Below are positions 7,160 to 14,492 of a DNA stretch of 20,000 nucleotides, piece by piece. The translations under genes were made by a program, and so were the position numbers. The stretch lies in NCBI GenBank assembly GCA_040771865.1, contig JAXGZF010000012.1:47639-67638 (forward strand), in the 5' to 3' direction. The notes under the pieces are model-generated. The model was given only the letters and a program-made list of their open reading frames with translations. It had not been told where the DNA came from and made no database searches. Numbering within the stretch: position 1 is the stretch's first letter; every line of letters begins with the position of its first letter. This DNA is from Desulfobacterales bacterium (GTDB lineage Bacteria > Desulfobacterota > Desulfobacteria > Desulfobacterales > UBA2245).

Positions 7160-8503
7160 TCAGGCCTGCCTTGCGTTTATCAAACACTCCTGTCCGGTTG
7201 TTTCCAGAACGCTGAGCCAGAGCGTTCCATTCGGATTGACCTGCTTGCGTTTTCCCGCCGAAGCATTCATGGGGATATGGACAAAATGGTTGTTCCAGTG
7301 TCCGACCAGAAGCTGTGTTTTCCCGGCCATTCCTGCATGGACCGCGTTTCGTCCCAGAAACGAGCAGAAGACATTGTCACCGGCATTGGCTGGCAGGCTT
7401 CGAATCATATAGCTTGGATCGATATATTTCAAAGAGATATCGATGCCTTTTTTCTTGAAATAGTCAGAGATCTCTTCTTTTAACAACCACCCGATGTCGT
7501 TCAGCCGGATGTTTCCGGAGGCATCCTTTTGTTGCTCAACGTCTTTGAAAAATTTCTGCCCGGCGCCTTCGGCCACCACGATCACGGCATGACCGCGGAG
7601 TTTCAAGCGGTTTTCCAGAGCCTGAAGAAGTCCGTTCGGTCCGCGCAGGTCAAAATCCACCTCGGGAATGAGTACGAAGTTTGCATCCTGCTGGGCCAGA
7701 GCGGCCGTGGCTGCGATAAAGCCCGAATGACGCCCCATCAGCTTGATCAGTCCGATGCCGTTGGGGTAGCCTTCTGATTCATTGTGTGCGCCCTCAATCG
7801 CCTGCGTGGCCACATCCACGGCCGTGTCAAATCCAAAAGATCGAGAAACCATGTAAATGTCGTTGTCTATGGTTTTCGGGATGCCGACGACGCTGATTTT
7901 GAGGCCTCTTTCCTGAATCGATTCGGAAATTTTCAGAGCAGCCATCAAGGTTCCGTCTCCGCCGATCATGAACAGAATTCCGATGTTCATACGCTCCAGG
8001 CAATCGATGATTTCCTCGATGGGCTGCGGACCCCGTGAGGATCCTAAAATCGAGCCCCCCATGTCCAGAATATTGACCACGGAGGCGGGCTTCAGATCCA
8101 TGATATCGTGACCGTAGCGTGGAATGAATCCCTGAAGGCCGTAACGTATGCCGTAAATATTGTGGACTCCGTAGCCATGATACAGCTGGAGAACGATGGA
8201 ACGGATGATGCCGTTGAGCCCGGGACAAAGCCCTCCGCAGGTAACCAGAGCGCATCTGAGCTTGCTTGGATCAAAATAGATGCGGTTCCGGGGACCGGCC
8301 AGCTCAAAGGTCGGCACTGCTTCGTCGGCCTGAAATTTGCGGGCAATGGTGCTCAGGTCCACATCGATCAATATTCGATCGTTGTCCGAAACATACAGAT
8401 CTTCGTCGCATTTCTGCAATCCTCTGCTCAGCGGCGATGGAATCTTGGCCTCGCCGAGTGACGAAATTTTCGTTTCCAGCGAATCATGATTAGGTATGTC
8501 CAT
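7160..8503 (-). CDS. pfkA: 6-phosphofructokinase, group II clade X type, predicted ATP-dependent
   Basis: VTCGGLCPGLN, GGDGT, PKTIDND, MGRHSG, YIDPSYMIRS. Gly in GGDG (not GGDD) indicates ATP preference. AGGAGAGG RBS. Confidence 0.92.
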   Translation of the reverse strand: MDIPNHDSLETKISSLGEAKIPSPLSRGLQKCDEDLYVSDNDRILIDVDLSTIARKFQADEAVPTFELAGPRNRIYFDPSKLRCALVTCGGLCPGLNGIIRSIVLQLYHGYGVHNIYGIRYGLQGFIPRYGHDIMDLKPASVVNILDMGGSILGSSRGPQPIEEIIDCLERMNIGILFMIGGDGTLMAALKISESIQERGLKISVVGIPKTIDNDIYMVSRSFGFDTAVDVATQAIEGAHNESEGYPNGIGLIKLMGRHSGFIAATAALAQQDANFVLIPEVDFDLRGPNGLLQALENRLKLRGHAVIVVAEGAGQKFFKDVEQQKDASGNIRLNDIGWLLKEEISDYFKKKGIDISLKYIDPSYMIRSLPANAGDNVFCSFLGRNAVHAGMAGKTQLLVGHWNNHFVHIPMNASAGKRKQVNPNGTLWLSVLETTGQECLINARQA

Positions 8504-8542
8504 GAGGTCCTCTCCTTTGAAAAGGTTCGAAGTTTTCCGGTG

Positions 8543-9523
8543 TCAGGGGGTTGAACCGTTAAACTTGAATTCACCTTTGCCAAGGATATCGTGCAGGTGA
8601 AGAATACCCATGACCTGCCCGGAAAAACTGGTGATCGGCAGTACCGTAATCTGGTATTGTTCCATCATGTTCAGCGCGTCATAAGCCGGAATGTCGGGGC
8701 CGAGGGTACGCGGATTTTGCGTCATGACCTCCTCGACGTACATCTCGTAGATCGGTTTTTTCTTGGCGATGCATCGCCGAATGTCGCCGTCGGTAATGAT
8801 GCCGGCCAGCGCATGATCGGCCCTGGTTACCAGGGTGACTCCCATTTCCATGCGGTCGATCTCCCGAATCGCCTCATCCATGCGACAGCCTTCCATAACG
8901 AAGGGAACCTCATGGCCGGTGAGCATGATGTCCTTTACCTTGCTGCTCAGCCGCTGACCCAGAATGCCGCCCGGGTGAATTTTTTTGAAGTCGCTGGTGT
9001 TGAAATGCCTTTTATTGATCAGGACCACGGCCAGCGCATCTCCCATGGCCAGCATGGCGGTTGTGCTGGCGGTCGGGGCAAGCCCCAGGGGGCAGGCTTC
9101 GCGTTCCACGCCGACATCAATGACGATGTCGCTGTTTTTGGCCAGAGTGGAGCAAGGGTTTCCGGTAAAGGCGATGATGGTGCATCCGATCACGCGTATG
9201 CTGGGCAGCAGCAGGTTGAGCTCGTCGGTTTCCCCGCTGTTGGAAAGCGCAAGAAAGATGTCGTCCGGACAGACGATGCCCAGATCGCCGTGCATGGCTT
9301 CGACCGGATGCAGAAAGACCGAGCGGGTGCCCGTGCTGTTGAGAGTGGCGGCGATTTTCCGGCCGACGATGCCCGATTTTCCGATTCCTCCGATAATAAT
9401 TCTGCCCTTGCAGTTATAAATCAGGTCCACCATCTCGACAAAACAATGATCGATCCGCTCGATAAGCCTCAAAATTCCTTCCGCTTCGATTCTAAGAACA
9501 TCAGCGGCCTGCTGAATCATCAT
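8543..9523 (-). CDS. kdsD: KdsD/KpsF/GutQ arabinose-5-phosphate isomerase (SIS domain plus CBS pair)
   Basis: GIGKSG, HPVEAMHGDLG, SNSGET, EACPLGLAPTAST, HPGG, GIITDGD, LHLHDIL. Confidence 0.95.
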   Translation of the reverse strand: MMIQQAADVLRIEAEGILRLIERIDHCFVEMVDLIYNCKGRIIIGGIGKSGIVGRKIAATLNSTGTRSVFLHPVEAMHGDLGIVCPDDIFLALSNSGETDELNLLLPSIRVIGCTIIAFTGNPCSTLAKNSDIVIDVGVEREACPLGLAPTASTTAMLAMGDALAVVLINKRHFNTSDFKKIHPGGILGQRLSSKVKDIMLTGHEVPFVMEGCRMDEAIREIDRMEMGVTLVTRADHALAGIITDGDIRRCIAKKKPIYEMYVEEVMTQNPRTLGPDIPAYDALNMMEQYQITVLPITSFSGQVMGILHLHDILGKGEFKFNGSTP

Positions 9524-9951
9524 AACGCTTTTATTCCAATTCTGATCTGTATGTATAGCGTCTAATGCGCTCTGGTTTTATTGAAATCAAACTGTAATTG
9601 ATTAATCTGCCAATTTTTGCGGCAAAAATCAAGATGACTTTTCAATCGGTTTCGGACAGCTCCTATAGAGCTTTACTTCATTACAGATCATATCCCTTTC
9701 CGCCTTACAAAATAGATAATTCAGATACATATCCTTATATAAATTGATAAAATCTTTTGATTTTGATATGTTTAAGATTAATGAAGATATCGTAAAACAT
9801 TCAATTTCAAGGCGTCGCAAACTCAGACGAGTGGTGCCAAGGCAGAAATAAAGCTTTCAATACTTAAGGTCAATGACCAGCATCATTCATGCGGCATGAC
9901 ATAAAGGCAGATCTCGCGCTCATATCAACCTTTTGGGAAAGGAGGCAGGTT

Positions 9952-10671
9952 ATGGCGGAAAAGCCGAAGGTGGGTTGTGCGCGTCCGACCGGCGGGCTGG
10001 TCGGACAGCCGGAGGCAAAACAGGAACAGCAGACATCGCAACCAGCAAAGGAGGTGAGAACCATGATACAGGTAGGAAAACCAGCCCCTGATTTCGTCGC
10101 GCCTGCATATCACAAAGGGGAGTTCACATCCGTTAAGTTGTCCGAGCATCTGGGCAAGTGGGTTGTTCTGTGCTTTTATCCCGGCGATTTCACATTTGTC
10201 TGAGCGACTGAAATATCGGCGGTCGCCGATAATTATAAGAAATTCCAAGACCTTGGCGTTGTACTGTTTTCGATGAGCGTGGACAGCATTTTTGTACACA
10301 AGATGTGGAACGATCATGAACTGTCCAAGATGGTCAAGGGGGGCGTTCCCTTCCCGATGCTTTCAGACGCGGGCGGAAAAGTCGGAACCGCTTATGGCGT
10401 ATATGATGAAGGTGCAGGGGTTGAGAACCGAGGCAGATTTATTATCGATCCGGATGGCATTATCCAGGCATTCGAGGTTCTCACGCCGCCGGTGGGCAGA
10501 CACGTGTCCGAAACCATCCGGCAGATCCAGGCCTATCAGCATGTGAGAAACAGCAAAGGGACCGAGGCAACCCCATCAGGATGGAAGCCCGGCAAAATGA
10601 CCCTCAAACCTGGCCCGGAACTTGTGGGCAGGGTGTGGGAAGTCTGGAAAACAAGCATGGAGGCCGACTAG
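9952..10671 (+). CDS. prxU: Selenocysteine-containing peroxiredoxin (AhpC/Prx1 family, PrxU-like); TGA at 10201-10203 read as Sec; alternative start at 10063
   Basis: Track ORFs 9889..10203 and 10273..10671 are one frame separated by a single [20 protein letters not shown], where AhpC has FTFVCPTE. Frame continues [43 protein letters not shown] before both 9952 and 10063. Confidence 0.93.
10214..10231 (+). promoter_or_regulatory. Bacterial SECIS-like hairpin
   Basis: Perfect 7-bp stem TATCGGC/GCCGATA with GGTC loop, starting 10 nt after the in-frame TGA. Confidence 0.8.
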
Positions 10672-10737
10672 TCCTGCTGTCAAATTCGGTATGCACGTCT
10701 TGCTGATGACTGACCAAGAAATAATGATATACAATGG

Positions 10738-10783
10738 ACGGCGGTTTGGAAGAAATGATTTATTCTAACCCGCCGTTTTTTTT
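10738..10783 (+). terminator. Rho-independent terminator of the peroxiredoxin gene
   Basis: ACGGCGG..TGGAA / TTCTA..CCGCCGT stem followed by a T run to 10783; lies between convergent prxU and sbcC. Confidence 0.65.
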
Positions 10784-10790
10784 ATCTAAT

Positions 10791-13700
10791 CTAAACTGAC
10801 CGTGACGGTCTGCCGGGCTGGATTTTTCCCTTGCAGCCCGGGCCGGATATCAGGCTTCTTCCTCCTGTTTGCGGTGTAACCTGGATGCGAGTGCCGATTC
10901 GCTCCCTGATGGCCGGTACGTGCGAAATGACACCGATTATCTTGCCATCCTGCTGCAGGCCCGCAAGCGTTTCGAGCGCCGTGTCCAATGCTTCCTCGTC
11001 CAGCGATCCAAAGCCTTCATCCAGGAACAGGGAATCGACCCGGACATTTTTGCTGGCCGTTTGAGACAGGCCAAGCGCCAGCGACAGGCTGACGATGAAG
11101 CTTTCGCCGCCGGAGAGATTCTGGGTGGACCGAACCTCTCCGGCCTGATAGTTGTCGATGACATTGAGTTCCAGAGGCTGAACATCGTCCCGGATCAGCA
11201 GGTAACGGTCGGTCATTTTCCGTAACTGCCGGTTGGCGTGGCCGACCATCATTTCAAAGGTCAACCCCTGAGCAAAGTTTCGGTATTTCTTCCCGTCGGC
11301 CGAACCAATGAGTTCATGGAGCAAATCCCATCGTGCGCTTTCCTTCTTTTGCGCTTCAATGGCCAAAGCCCGTTCCCGCTGCTTTTGTTTCAGATTCTCG
11401 TTGTCCTTGAGTTTCTGTCGAATGCCCCAGATCTCCTGCTGAAGCGCTTTCTGGTCGGCTGCCAGCAGCGTCAGCGCCTGATGGATTTCGTCCCGGGGTT
11501 GATCCGTAATCCGCCTCCGACGCTCGGCTTCCAGCAAGTTTATCTTGTCCTGTTCCCTGGACGTCAGTTCGGTTTTCTCGTCGGCCAGCTTCTGGGCATG
11601 CTGCGCCAGGGTTTTACGCTCGTCCTCCGGCAGGCATGCGGCCCTAAAGTTTTCTTCGTCGGTAAACCCAGATTTTTTGATTCGCATCAGGAATGCTTCT
11701 TCAGCCGGCTTCAGCTGCGCGGACCGTTCAGTTATCGATTTGCCCAGCCCTTCGATTCTGAATTTCAGCTGACCGAGTTTCTGTGCCGCCGTATTCAGTT
11801 TTTGGCGGGATGCTTCCAGATCGTTTTCAGCAGCCTCAACAGCTGTCGAAAGACGGAGTTCTTCATCATCAGGGTTTTTATCGCCGAATATTTCGCGCCG
11901 CTTTTGACTCAGGGCCTCTTGTTCGCGGAGCAGGTCATTGAACAGTTTGCGTTGTTTCATGATCTCTTCGTTGGACTTATGAATCTGTTCAGCCTGATGG
12001 CGTGTCTGACTCTCCAGCGCGGTAATGGTGTGATCCAGTTCCGACTTTTTTTTCTGACGCGAAACCCACTGGTCACGGTGGTCTATCAGCCGGGCCTGAA
12101 TCTGATCCAGAGTCTCGAACGTTACGGCTTGTACCCCATAAGCAGAAACATCCTGCCGCAATATTTCCAAGGACTTCTCCTGCTGTGACCGTAGCGACTC
12201 AACCTCCTTGCCGAGCCTTTCAATCAGCTGCCCGTTGAGATCCTTGTTGTGAAAAGCGGTCTGCGTCTCGCGTTCCGCCCGTGCAACCGTTTCTCTGGCT
12301 TTTTCCAGCGATTCGCGCAGTTTGATTGTTTCCTTTTCAGCGTTTTCGGCGGTTTGTACGATTCGGGTTGCGTGATCCAGTTTTGCCGCATTTTCATTCC
12401 CAAGCCTTTCCAGTTTATCGTTCAGATTCGGATCGGCGGCATCAAGGGGGAGGTCGGAGCAGGCCCGGCGAATCAGGTCGTTCGATTCCGCAATTTTCTC
12501 GGAATGCTCCTTCTGGCTGGAATCGACTTGCTCAAGGTCTTTTTCCACTCTGGCCTGTTTAACCTTCAATCCGGAAACAGCGTTATTCGCTGCTTTCAAG
12601 TCGGCTCTGACCCGGCCAAGCCGTTGCCGGGTTTCATCCGGAACCGGGATGTTGCCATCAGCGAACGGGTGTTCCTTGGCGCCGCACAGCGGGCAGGCTT
12701 CGCCATCCTGAAGCTGGCGTCTGGCTTCCTTGAAATCCTCGATTTTCTTCAGCAGGGATAGCTGTGTTTCCAGCAGGCCCATTTCCTTCTCCAGAGAAAC
12801 CTGCTTCTCAACCTGAATTCGAAGTTGCGCGGTCAGGCTTGAATTTTCGGCAACAAGCGCTTCATGGCGTTTTCCCGTCTGATCAAGAACCTGCCTTGAT
12901 TTTGCAAGGGACCGCGCCGCCTCGCGGACCTGGGCAAAAAGAGATTTCTGCGTTGTCAGAGACAATACGCAATTGCGCCAGTCTGACAGTTCTCTGCCGT
13001 TCAGAATGCCCTTGATCTCCACCTGCTTTCGCGACAGTTTGCCTTGATCGTCGTCCAAGCCGCGTTTCAGGGCTTCCAGATTTTCAGACAGCTTTTTCCA
13101 TGTCCGTGTGGATGCTGCCGACTGCTCCTCGGCCGCATCACGCTCCTTGAGCTTGCCGATCAGCTGTGCATGAAGGTTTTTCAGGGCTTCGACTTGACCC
13201 CGAATTCCTGCCAGGCGTTCGATCAGCCCTTCGTCGGCCTTTGTTTCTTCGAGCTGCTTTTGCAATGCTTCGAGGGCTTTTTGTCTGCCGTTCAGATCGG
13301 CGCAGTCTTTACCCTGTCTGGAGCGGAGTGCTTCAAAAGATTTTTCGTATTCGGAAATGGAATTGAAAGCCTCCTGGACGCGCGCATTTTGTTCCCGGAT
13401 TTTCAGATCCAGTTCTCTTGTCAGGCGGATGACCGGTACTGCTTCTTTTTGCTCGGACTTTCTTTGATCGAGCTGCCCGCCGGCTGTTTTCACGGCGCCG
13501 TTTGTCTCCTTTTCAACCGCTTCGAGAGCGGGAAATAATTTCAAGCAGTCGCCGAGATTCCCCTGGTCGGCCTCCTGCTCTCTCCGGAGCGACGTCAGTG
13601 CGGCGTATTCGCCAGCCAGTTCAAGTGCCTGAACGGCTTGCCTGAGTTTTTCCTGCTCGGGAGCGAACGCTTCTTGTCGGGCATATAGATCCTGCTTCTG

Positions 13701-14492
13701 GAGCTGAAGGAGCTTTAAGTCTTCTTCAAGACGGGAGATTCCGTCAATCCAGGAAAGCGCCTGGTTCTTCAGGACGATCTTCCGGCTCAGCTCTGTATCC
13801 TGTTCGGTTTTCTGCGCCAGGCTGATGTTGAGCAGTTGCTCATCTTCTGGGCTCAAAAGCTGTATGCCGGCGAGTTCGGACTGCAGCGCATCGAGCTTTT
13901 TTCGTTCCTCGGAACGGCGTTCATGAACGCGCATGGATATCCGGCTGTAAATCTCCGTCCCGGTGATTTGCTCCAGGATCGGCGCCCGTTCATCGGGACC
14001 AGCCTGCAGAAATACCGCAAAACTCCCCTGGGCAAGCAGCATGGAGCGGGTAAACCGATCAAAGTCCATGCCGGTGGCTGTTTCAATCTGCTCGGCAACG
14101 CCTCGAATTTTTGCCTCGAAAATTCGTCCGGAATCGGCATCGGCAATTTCATGCCTCGGCGCCTGCAGCTCTCCGTCGGGTTTTTTGCGCGCCCGGTGTT
14201 GACTCCAGTGGCATCGGAAACGGCCTGCCTGAGTTTCAAATGTCACCTCGGCATAGCACTCACCGGTCTGGCGGGACATGAGCTCGTTCCCGCCTTTGTT
14301 GATCCTGCTGAGGCGGGGTGTGCGCCCATAGAGCGCCAGACAGATGGCATCAAGGATGGTGGTCTTGCCTGAACCGGTCGGACCGGTAATGGCAAAAATG
14401 CCGTCCGAGGCAAAGGCCGGGTGCGTAAGGTCAATCTCCCATTCGCCAACCAGTGAGTTCAGGTTTTTGAAACGTACCTGCAAAATCCGCAT
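10791..14492 (-). CDS. sbcC: Exonuclease SbcCD subunit C (Rad50-like ATPase)
   Basis: Walker A GPTGSGKT, long coiled coils, zinc hook CPLCG, signature LSGGE, Walker B FLDEGFGSLD, ISH. Confidence 0.96.
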   Translation of the reverse strand: MRILQVRFKNLNSLVGEWEIDLTHPAFASDGIFAITGPTGSGKTTILDAICLALYGRTPRLSRINKGGNELMSRQTGECYAEVTFETQAGRFRCHWSQHRARKKPDGELQAPRHEIADADSGRIFEAKIRGVAEQIETATGMDFDRFTRSMLLAQGSFAVFLQAGPDERAPILEQITGTEIYSRISMRVHERRSEERKKLDALQSELAGIQLLSPEDEQLLNISLAQKTEQDTELSRKIVLKNQALSWIDGISRLEEDLKLLQLQKQDLYARQEAFAPEQEKLRQAVQALELAGEYAALTSLRREQEADQGNLGDCLKLFPALEAVEKETNGAVKTAGGQLDQRKSEQKEAVPVIRLTRELDLKIREQNARVQEAFNSISEYEKSFEALRSRQGKDCADLNGRQKALEALQKQLEETKADEGLIERLAGIRGQVEALKNLHAQLIGKLKERDAAEEQSAASTRTWKKLSENLEALKRGLDDDQGKLSRKQVEIKGILNGRELSDWRNCVLSLTTQKSLFAQVREAARSLAKSRQVLDQTGKRHEALVAENSSLTAQLRIQVEKQVSLEKEMGLLETQLSLLKKIEDFKEARRQLQDGEACPLCGAKEHPFADGNIPVPDETRQRLGRVRADLKAANNAVSGLKVKQARVEKDLEQVDSSQKEHSEKIAESNDLIRRACSDLPLDAADPNLNDKLERLGNENAAKLDHATRIVQTAENAEKETIKLRESLEKARETVARAERETQTAFHNKDLNGQLIERLGKEVESLRSQQEKSLEILRQDVSAYGVQAVTFETLDQIQARLIDHRDQWVSRQKKKSELDHTITALESQTRHQAEQIHKSNEEIMKQRKLFNDLLREQEALSQKRREIFGDKNPDDEELRLSTAVEAAENDLEASRQKLNTAAQKLGQLKFRIEGLGKSITERSAQLKPAEEAFLMRIKKSGFTDEENFRAACLPEDERKTLAQHAQKLADEKTELTSREQDKINLLEAERRRRITDQPRDEIHQALTLLAADQKALQQEIWGIRQKLKDNENLKQKQRERALAIEAQKKESARWDLLHELIGSADGKKYRNFAQGLTFEMMVGHANRQLRKMTDRYLLIRDDVQPLELNVIDNYQAGEVRSTQNLSGGESFIVSLSLALGLSQTASKNVRVDSLFLDEGFGSLDEEALDTALETLAGLQQDGKIIGVISHVPAIRERIGTRIQVTPQTGGRSLISGPGCKGKIQPGRPSRSV

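Follow-up and report, generated by a model that had tools for sequence, protein, structure and literature searches.

We found that prxU, a gene in a 20,000-nucleotide (nt) stretch of Desulfobacterales DNA (contig JAXGZF010000012.1 of assembly GCA_040771865.1; this whole stretch is termed the window), carries two in-frame pairs of a Shine-Dalgarno (SD) sequence and an ATG, and we propose that it is expressed as two N-terminal proteoforms that differ by a short arm bearing a resolving Cys. The sequence identifies prxU with certainty as the gene of a selenocysteine (Sec) peroxiredoxin (Prx) of the Prx1/AhpC type. It is one gene on the forward strand (window positions 9952 to 10671), with starts at 9952 and 10063 that give a long form of 239 amino acids (aa) and a short form of 202 aa; both end at a common TAG stop, and the TGA at positions 10201 to 10203 is read as Sec. 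The initial annotation of this DNA had described the two SD/ATG pairs, a 37-aa extension in which a GCARPTGG motif precedes a low-complexity linker, the replacement of the usual C-terminal VCP by ATP (EATPSGW), and a short form with a single Cys (VVLCFYP), all of which we could read from the sequence. We assign a probability of roughly 0.55 to the joint reading, that is, two N-terminal proteoforms together with a resolving role for the arm Cys (Cys9). Its first part, two proteoforms from prxU, is probable, while the arm Cys would by a narrow preference be a relocated resolving Cys.

Features of prxU (window coordinates, strand, description):
9938..9945, +, SD of the first start, AAAGGAGG; spacer CAGGTT (6 nt), anti-SD duplex of -10.0 kcal/mol
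9952..9954, +, first ATG, start of the long form (239 aa); positions 1 to 233 of the NF040737 profile align from 5 residues past this Met
9973..9996, +, arm motif GCARPTGG, with the Cys9 codon TGT at 9976 to 9978
9997..10062, +, low-complexity variable linker (residues 16 to 37), predicted to be disordered
10047..10056, +, internal SD, AAAGGAGGTG, in the linker codons for A-K-E-V; spacer AGAACC (6 nt), duplex of -14.3 kcal/mol
10063..10065, +, internal in-frame ATG, start of the 202-aa core form and also the start codon of arm-less relatives
10171..10173, +, Cys74 codon (VVLCFYP), the sole Cys of the short form
10196..10232, +, hairpin resembling a Sec insertion sequence (SECIS), spanning the UGA and the bases just 3' of it; minimum free energy (MFE) of -15 kcal/mol, z of -0.76, which alone is not significant
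10201..10203, +, TGA read as Sec at the peroxidatic position (PGDFTFVU); a single TGA stands here in nearly all PrxU matches
10564..10584, +, EATPSGW at the site of the canonical EVCPxGW resolving Cys, aligned with EVCPAGW of 4fh8; Thr (codon at 10570 to 10572) replaces Cys
10669..10671, +, stop codon TAG, as read from the sequence
10736..10783, +, predicted intrinsic terminator, a hairpin followed by T8; -19.5 kcal/mol, z of -4.37, with 0/200 shuffles folding as well

SD strength was measured as the anti-SD duplex within the 17 nt upstream of a start, and a duplex of -9 kcal/mol or lower was counted as strong. This level is reached by 6.5% of 51,967 sequence windows taken from PrxU core coding sequence and is exceeded by both SDs of the gene.

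PrxU is a selenocysteine peroxiredoxin, and the arm is part of its family model

The NCBIfam equivalog model for PrxU (NF040737; cut-off, 270 bits) matched the frame that runs from 9889 with 414.6 bits, the aligned residues being those of the 9952 form. The short form scored 393 bits and aligned with profile positions 35 to 233 only; the arm contributes 21.6 bits to the score. Because the 233 profile positions align from five residues past the first Met to the end of the protein, the arm belongs to the curated PrxU model, and the idea that it is a peculiarity of this gene has to be given up. An ATG at 9889 was considered as a start and rejected, as it has no SD and the NF040737 profile stops short of it. 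A six-frame search of the source genome with the same profile scored the prxU locus at 408.9 bits; a second, weak match of 40 bits that contains a TGA and a TAA (one each) was seen in that genome (G000:C8:112611-113153, or L002).

Sec occupies the peroxidatic position of the PxxxTxxU motif (P77-G-D-F-T81-F-V-U84). Reading the TGA as Sec is well founded, since SelB (362.6 bits; cut-off, 242) and tRNA-Sec (76.1 bits; gathering score, 47) were both found above their cut-offs in the same genome (G000) and a hairpin spans the UGA. The only Rfam match, to RAGATH-25 over positions 10209 to 10250, reached 19.6 bits against a threshold of 49, and we regard it as chance. Pfam entries AhpC-TSA (1.9e-37) and 1-cysPrx_C, the latter in the tail, were recognized in the protein. 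The closest solved structures are typical 2-Cys enzymes of the Prx1/AhpC type (4fh8, 1qmv, and 1yf1; E values from 1.7e-47 to 1e-36), which cover residues 38 to 228, and none of the solved chains matched in this PDB search aligned with residues 1 to 37. The canonical C-terminal EVCP with its resolving Cys was not found, the motif at that site being EATPSGW. Judged by its motifs, this PrxU would be Prx1-like in its working and lies outside the canonical 2-Cys group.

The N-terminal arm and its Cys are conserved

A six-frame search with NF040737 of 401 genomes of the phylum, that of the window included, found PrxU in 130 genomes (139 matches). The alignment begins at profile position 3 or earlier in 105 of the 139 matches (arm-type) and at position 10 or later in the other 34. 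We fetched 96 of the 105 arm-type loci and all 34 others, 130 in total, of which a script that recognizes an arm by its Cys could analyze 120. The ten that were dropped are L023, which is interrupted by a TAG; L055, L060, and L062, without the active-site motif; L061, L065, L084, L093, and L131, without the APDF anchor; and L050, without a core start codon. The 120 loci comprise 94 arm-bearing genes (93 with Sec and 1 with Cys), so that the arm is nearly restricted to Sec forms, and 26 arm-less genes. Two of the dropped loci deserve a remark of their own. In L023 (G292), an in-frame TAG breaks the core of an arm-bearing prxU (…AYHKG*FTNV…), which may be a pseudogene or reflect a sequencing error. 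L061 (G203) is a distant PrxU-like Sec gene below the family cut-off, in which a signal-peptide-like extension is followed by …LKGGCGAKPG…, and its product may be exported or lipid anchored.

All 96 fetched arms defined by the profile contain the Cys (92 by script and 4, in L023, L084, L093, and L131, by eye), in line with the expectation of the initial annotation that an N-terminal Cys with a function would be conserved. M1 and C9 are invariant in an alignment of the 94 arm-bearing sequences (A1; 57 to 82% identity to the window protein). A second sample, obtained by scanning one genome for each GTDB species, comprises 80 loci; the records that they come from are titled Desulfobacterota, Nitrospirota, Chloroflexota, Planctomycetota, Spirochaetota, Zixibacteria, KSB1, Acidobacteriota, Gemmatimonadota, and others, although labels of metagenome-assembled genomes on short contigs call for caution. 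The script found an arm in 75 of the 78 analyzable loci, and three more (L157, L173, and L175) have one too, with a non-ATG first start. In these three, from records titled Syntrophaceae or Syntrophales, the arm apparently starts at a Leu codon preceded by AAGGAGGT, and the first start thus seems to be flexible in codon choice as well.

The two samples overlap slightly and together hold 165 distinct arms out of 169. The consensus of the motif is G-C-x-[RK]-P-[TA]-x-G-P-[VI], and about 22 residues of variable linker, rich in E, P, and T, come after it. Of the 165 distinct arms, 146 have Gly at -1 relative to the Cys and 146 have Pro at +3; 133 have Gly at +6 and 158 have V, I, or L at +8. Further positions of the motif are [RK] at +2, [TA] at +4, and P or V at +7. 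The arm is 27 to 42 residues long (median, 37) and has a single Cys in 164/165 cases; its linker consists of E (18%), P (13%), T (12%), A (10%), K (10%), and Q (9%). The motif comes in two flavors, one of them GCVxPAKGPI, that align with each other without gaps. Elsewhere in the window genome we found no copy of the motif outside prxU, the single match with 2 mismatches being at the level of the control. That the Cys might belong to a lipoprotein or signal peptide was rejected, as no hydrophobic segment lies upstream. On the evidence of these alignments, the arm is a real, conserved feature and not a local oddity.

This conservation bears on the idea that the short form is the only real enzyme and that the upstream 111 nt are a translated leader or an annotation artifact that is in frame by chance. 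The internal SD is indeed stronger than the first one (-14.3 versus -10.0 kcal/mol), and the prototype PrxU is reportedly about 203 aa long. However, the arm is in frame and free of stops in every arm-bearing gene examined, its motif is conserved at the protein level across records titled as many phyla, it adds its 21.6 bits to the score of a curated profile, and it has its own SD, which is strong in 78/94 arm-bearing genes. We therefore consider that a short form alone is very improbable.

The internal start appears to be selected at the nucleotide level

The initial annotation had set the absence of a conserved internal SD-ATG as a ground for abandoning two starts; the site proved to be conserved. 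The codon at the boundary between arm and core is ATG in 91 and GTG in 3 of the 94 arm-bearing genes (ATG or GTG in 94/94), and the internal SD is strong in 82 of them. Two of the GTG cases (L092 and L103) retain GGAGG upstream, and the third (L124) is without it; a change from Met to Val in which a start codon is retained would be expected under selection for initiation. The second sample gave a similar picture, with an internal ATG in 74/75 genes, GTG in 1/75, and a strong SD in 55/75.

We looked into the base composition upstream of the internal start codon in the 94 genes. Positional information is 0.95 to 1.23 bits at positions -13 to -9, where GGAGG lies, versus about 0.1 to 0.5 bits elsewhere between -30 and -1. 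As the flanking linker belongs to the same sequences, it serves as an internal control for relatedness. GGAGG is found in 77/94 genes, the weaker GGAG or GAGG in 12, and neither in 5. The 77 occurrences fall into each of the three reading frames (69, 4, and 4) and cover 21 different peptides (for example KEV, REV, KEA, EEE, GG, and RRE), with spacers of 5 to 11 nt (mode, 8) between GGAGG and the start. Codon choice follows the same pattern: GAG outnumbers GAA by 102:30 within the SD window; the counts are 114:298 for the remaining arm codons and 630:615 for the core. The predicted MFE of 50-nt segments is -6.7 at the second start and -6.3 at the first, versus -12.0 inside the core. Taken together, these comparisons indicate that selection acts on the nucleotides of the internal ribosome-binding site and keeps them beyond any need of the protein sequence, and a core-only proteoform is therefore likely.

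The same data were weighed against the possibility that only the long form is made, the internal SD-ATG being a relic of the start of an arm-less ancestor, an SD-like pause before the UGA and SECIS, or a protein-level need for K-E-V...M. The internal ATG corresponds exactly to the codon at which arm-less relatives start, and its position is accordingly explained by common descent; in addition, KEV is the commonest peptide over GGAGG (21/77), and the internal SD is weak in a part of both samples (12/94 and 20/75). Yet a neutral relic should decay like the linker, to about 0.1 to 0.5 bits, whereas GGAGG stands at 1.0 to 1.2 bits in the very same sequences. GGAGG also persists in three frames and 21 peptides, a bias toward GAG is seen nowhere but there, and switches from ATG to GTG preserve the start potential even though the residue turns from Met to Val. 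Finally, a pause site needs no start codon at a spacing of 5 to 11 nt. We hold a long form alone to be unlikely and, with both ribosome-binding sites seemingly kept by selection, favor a cell that most likely makes forms with and without the arm.

Cys residues elsewhere in PrxU are distributed in a complementary way

The C-terminal resolving Cys is absent in 86 of the 94 arm-bearing genes, and E[VA]CP is present in 8. VCP is retained by 14 of the 26 arm-less genes, 10 carry a C-terminal Cys at a different place (GKVCEIW), and 2 carry none; 24/26 thus have a C-terminal Cys. One of the two exceptions (L064) hardly differs from an arm-bearing sister and seems to carry a frameshift in its arm, and the other (L035) is genuinely arm-less. 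VCP changes its state at least 4 times among the arm-bearing rows, and the forms that keep it lie near the base of the arm clades (unrooted tree), a pattern compatible with a gain of the arm followed by repeated loss of a VCP that had become redundant.

The ten arm-less genes with another C-terminal Cys form a clade of Sec-Prx (L038 to L041, L043, L045 to L047, L052, and L053; Shimodaira-Hasegawa-like approximate likelihood ratio test [SH-aLRT] value, 99) that has neither arm nor VCP. Their Cys lies in the far C-terminal helix, GKVCEIWSPEMAF, at the place where the window protein has GRVWEVW, and from its position it looks like a third solution for placing the resolving Cys.

A proposed mechanism and its weighing

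We propose that the two selected ribosome-binding sites, one before the arm and the other in the linker just before the core domain, would yield long and short forms that co-assemble in the Prx dimer or decamer. Cys9, brought in by the swing of its tether, would attack the selenenic acid that forms at Sec84, and the resulting Cys9-Sec84 selenenylsulfide would be reduced by a thioredoxin-type reductant; Cys9 would in this way take over the role of the lost C-terminal resolving Cys. We infer the firing of both starts in vivo, the mixing of the forms, and the reaction between Cys9 and Sec84. That Gly, Pro, and hydrophobic residues near the Cys are conserved suggests a specific docking geometry, with either the active-site pocket or a reductase. 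In an AlphaFold2 (AF2) model of the monomer, computed from the 94-sequence alignment, the core has a predicted local distance difference test (pLDDT) score above 90, and the arm falls below 50 at residues 1 to 15 and 19 to 35; a disordered arm on a confident core is what would be expected of a swinging arm. A more elaborate version, in which arm-bearing subunits would be sub-stoichiometric to arm-less ones, in a ratio fixed by the two ribosome-binding sites, so that a few arms in a mixed decamer would serve several Sec sites as a resolving or shuttle thiol and dock through their motif to a reductase, strikes us as doubtful.

The arm could also be made in two proteoforms while its Cys is not a resolving one. 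It might act in docking or relay to a dedicated reductase or client, as a selenol cap, or in binding Se or a metal, with the isoform ratio tuning that activity. The residues conserved beside the Cys (those at -1, +2, +3, and +6, Pro at +7, and the hydrophobic one at +8) are of the kind expected for a specific binding site, 8 arm-bearing genes retain VCP, and AF2 leaves the arm off its own core. Against this, a Pfam scan of 150 of the 202 flanking frames detected no recurrent partner gene beside prxU, the arm motif occurs nowhere else in the window genome, and substitution is the simplest account of why the C-terminal Cys is lost in a complementary way. A nonresolving role for the arm Cys therefore seems improbable to us, and we retain the resolving role as the preferred one.

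Several observations weigh against two proteoforms with a resolving arm. At the internal start, the A-rich linker codons contribute to the low RNA structure and could suffice for it alone, the SD is weak in 12/94 arm-bearing genes of the first sample and 20/75 of the second, and about four genes (L124, L131, L195, and L203) lack the internal ATG. For the arm Cys, the script definition of an arm is circular, and only the profile-defined count of 96/96 is free of this. In a maximum-likelihood (ML) tree of the 120 cores, the arm state changes only 5 times, and the supported branches yield just 2 independent pairs. There is no strict exclusivity between the arm and the C-terminal Cys in these sequences, and because 8 arm-bearing genes retain VCP, the arm is apparently no simple substitute. 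Cys74, which lies ten residues before the Sec, is invariant in the arm-bearing genes (94/94) and present in 7/26 arm-less ones (the others having Y, F, L, or V); it could be an alternative redox partner or a mere clade marker. The short form has no resolving Cys at all and calls for a separate explanation. The AF2 monomer docks the arm nowhere and gives no contact information. As for the resolving or shuttle role that the initial annotation had suggested, its fit with the complementary distribution of Cys residues stands, and it is tempered by the small number of independent lineages and by the disorder of the modeled arm.

RNA containing both starts and the arm codons exists: two metatranscriptome contigs, from two assemblies of one study, match the window without differences over positions 9818 to 10339 and 9916 to 10258 and span both starts. 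Such contigs are blind to transcript ends, strand, abundance, and translation, may include carried-over DNA, and tell nothing of the parts they leave uncovered, which also limits what they can lend to our proposal.

Comparison with known systems

The prototype PrxU is that of Eubacterium acidaminophilum (Sohling et al., 2001, as cited in passages of PMC7231847 and PMC8533274), and Sec peroxiredoxins, known since 2001, figure in every selenoproteome survey, according to sections of PMC1794560 and PMC13188914. With a full-length match above the NF040737 cut-off that includes the arm, the window protein shows no difference from PrxU at the level of the family. A description of a role for the arm or of an internal prxU start was not found in the literature searched, and the original 2001 paper on PrxU lies outside that search. 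Typical 2-Cys Prx (4fh8, 1qmv, and 1yf1) share the fold class and the C-terminal GWKPG segment, but the window protein has a peroxidatic Sec, a Thr in place of the resolving Cys of EVCPAGW, and the extra residues 1 to 37.

The mechanisms of peroxiredoxins are classed by the position of the resolving Cys, and those of yeast Ahp1 (Cys31), Tpx, PrxQ/BCP, and Prx5 lie outside the C terminus, a precedent for relocation of this residue in the evolution of Prx. In those proteins the Cys lies in the folded domain, whereas the arm Cys of PrxU, a Prx1-type enzyme, belongs to a disordered extension and precedes the fold by about 28 residues. If our proposal is correct, a Prx1-type selenoenzyme with its Cys on a disordered tether at the N terminus would represent a new, sixth location class for the resolving Cys and would reveal a way to resolve a selenenic acid when the canonical C-terminal Cys is missing. 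Mobile terminal peptides that bring a Cys to a buried redox center are also found in mammalian thioredoxin reductase, with its C-terminal Gly-Cys-Sec-Gly tail, and in DsrC, whose C-terminal arm ends in ...PKPTGCV. The arms of DsrC and PrxU have the string [KR]-P-T-G in common; since the protein, the terminus, and the order of residues all differ, we take this likeness as a lead only.

In-frame internal initiation that yields N-terminal proteoforms is established in bacteria, as set out in portions of the retapamulin ribosome profiling (Ribo-seq) study of Meydan et al. (10.1101/520783) and of PMC11005335. The prxU gene has the same layout of two in-frame pairs of SD and start, with a shorter product that lacks an N-terminal module, although its evidence is comparative only and comes from an internal site conserved in records titled as many phyla. 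No peroxiredoxin was noticed among such cases, the gene lists of these studies lying outside the search. Internal initiation is also familiar from ClpB, IF2, and CheA. Ribo-seq now yields internal in-frame starts in bulk, and few of them come with clear evidence of selection. If the internal start of prxU is used, it would rank with the bacterial examples of programmed internal initiation that have the widest conservation, and its strong comparative signal at the nucleotide level, in an otherwise unconstrained linker, makes it a clean and easily mutated test case for paired proteoforms. What appears to be new here is the arrangement of an arm and an internal start; Sec peroxiredoxins, relocated resolving Cys residues, and internal initiation are already known as kinds. 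Annotations should retain the long start and flag the internal one, and those who express Sec-Prx should expect two products.

Gene surroundings

The region upstream of prxU is AT-rich and 390 nt long, and the gene has its own terminator on the 3' side. A perfect 10-bp hairpin (GUCCGACCGG/CUGGUCGGAC; window positions 9984 to 10007) lies within the codons of the arm motif, between both starts. It is not family-wide, with a z of -2.45 here versus a median of -0.86 over the 94 genes (17 below -2), and the region from 9900 to 10110 as a whole folds no better than its shuffles (z of -0.16).

In the window, prxU is flanked by genes at 7160 to 9523 and 10791 to 14492, both on the reverse strand. They include a KpsF/GutQ-type SIS+CBS protein and a 1,233-aa SbcC/Rad50-like ATPase, as assigned with Pfam, and a further neighbor, an open reading frame of 447 aa, is presumably phosphofructokinase-like; none has an obvious redox link. 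Around the other prxU genes, Pfam recognized scattered genes for catalase, a KatG-type peroxidase, Fur-family regulators, rubrerythrin, and cytochrome bd, as well as pyridine-nucleotide-disulfide oxidoreductases with a rhodanese domain and proteins combining metallo-beta-lactamase (MBL) and rhodanese domains. Neighbors of this oxidative-stress or sulfur type were seen at L009, L015, L021, L134, L140, L141, L170, L174, and L179, and in several records titled Desulfobacterales prxU adjoins MBL-rhodanese genes or genes resembling coenzyme A (CoA)-disulfide reductase.

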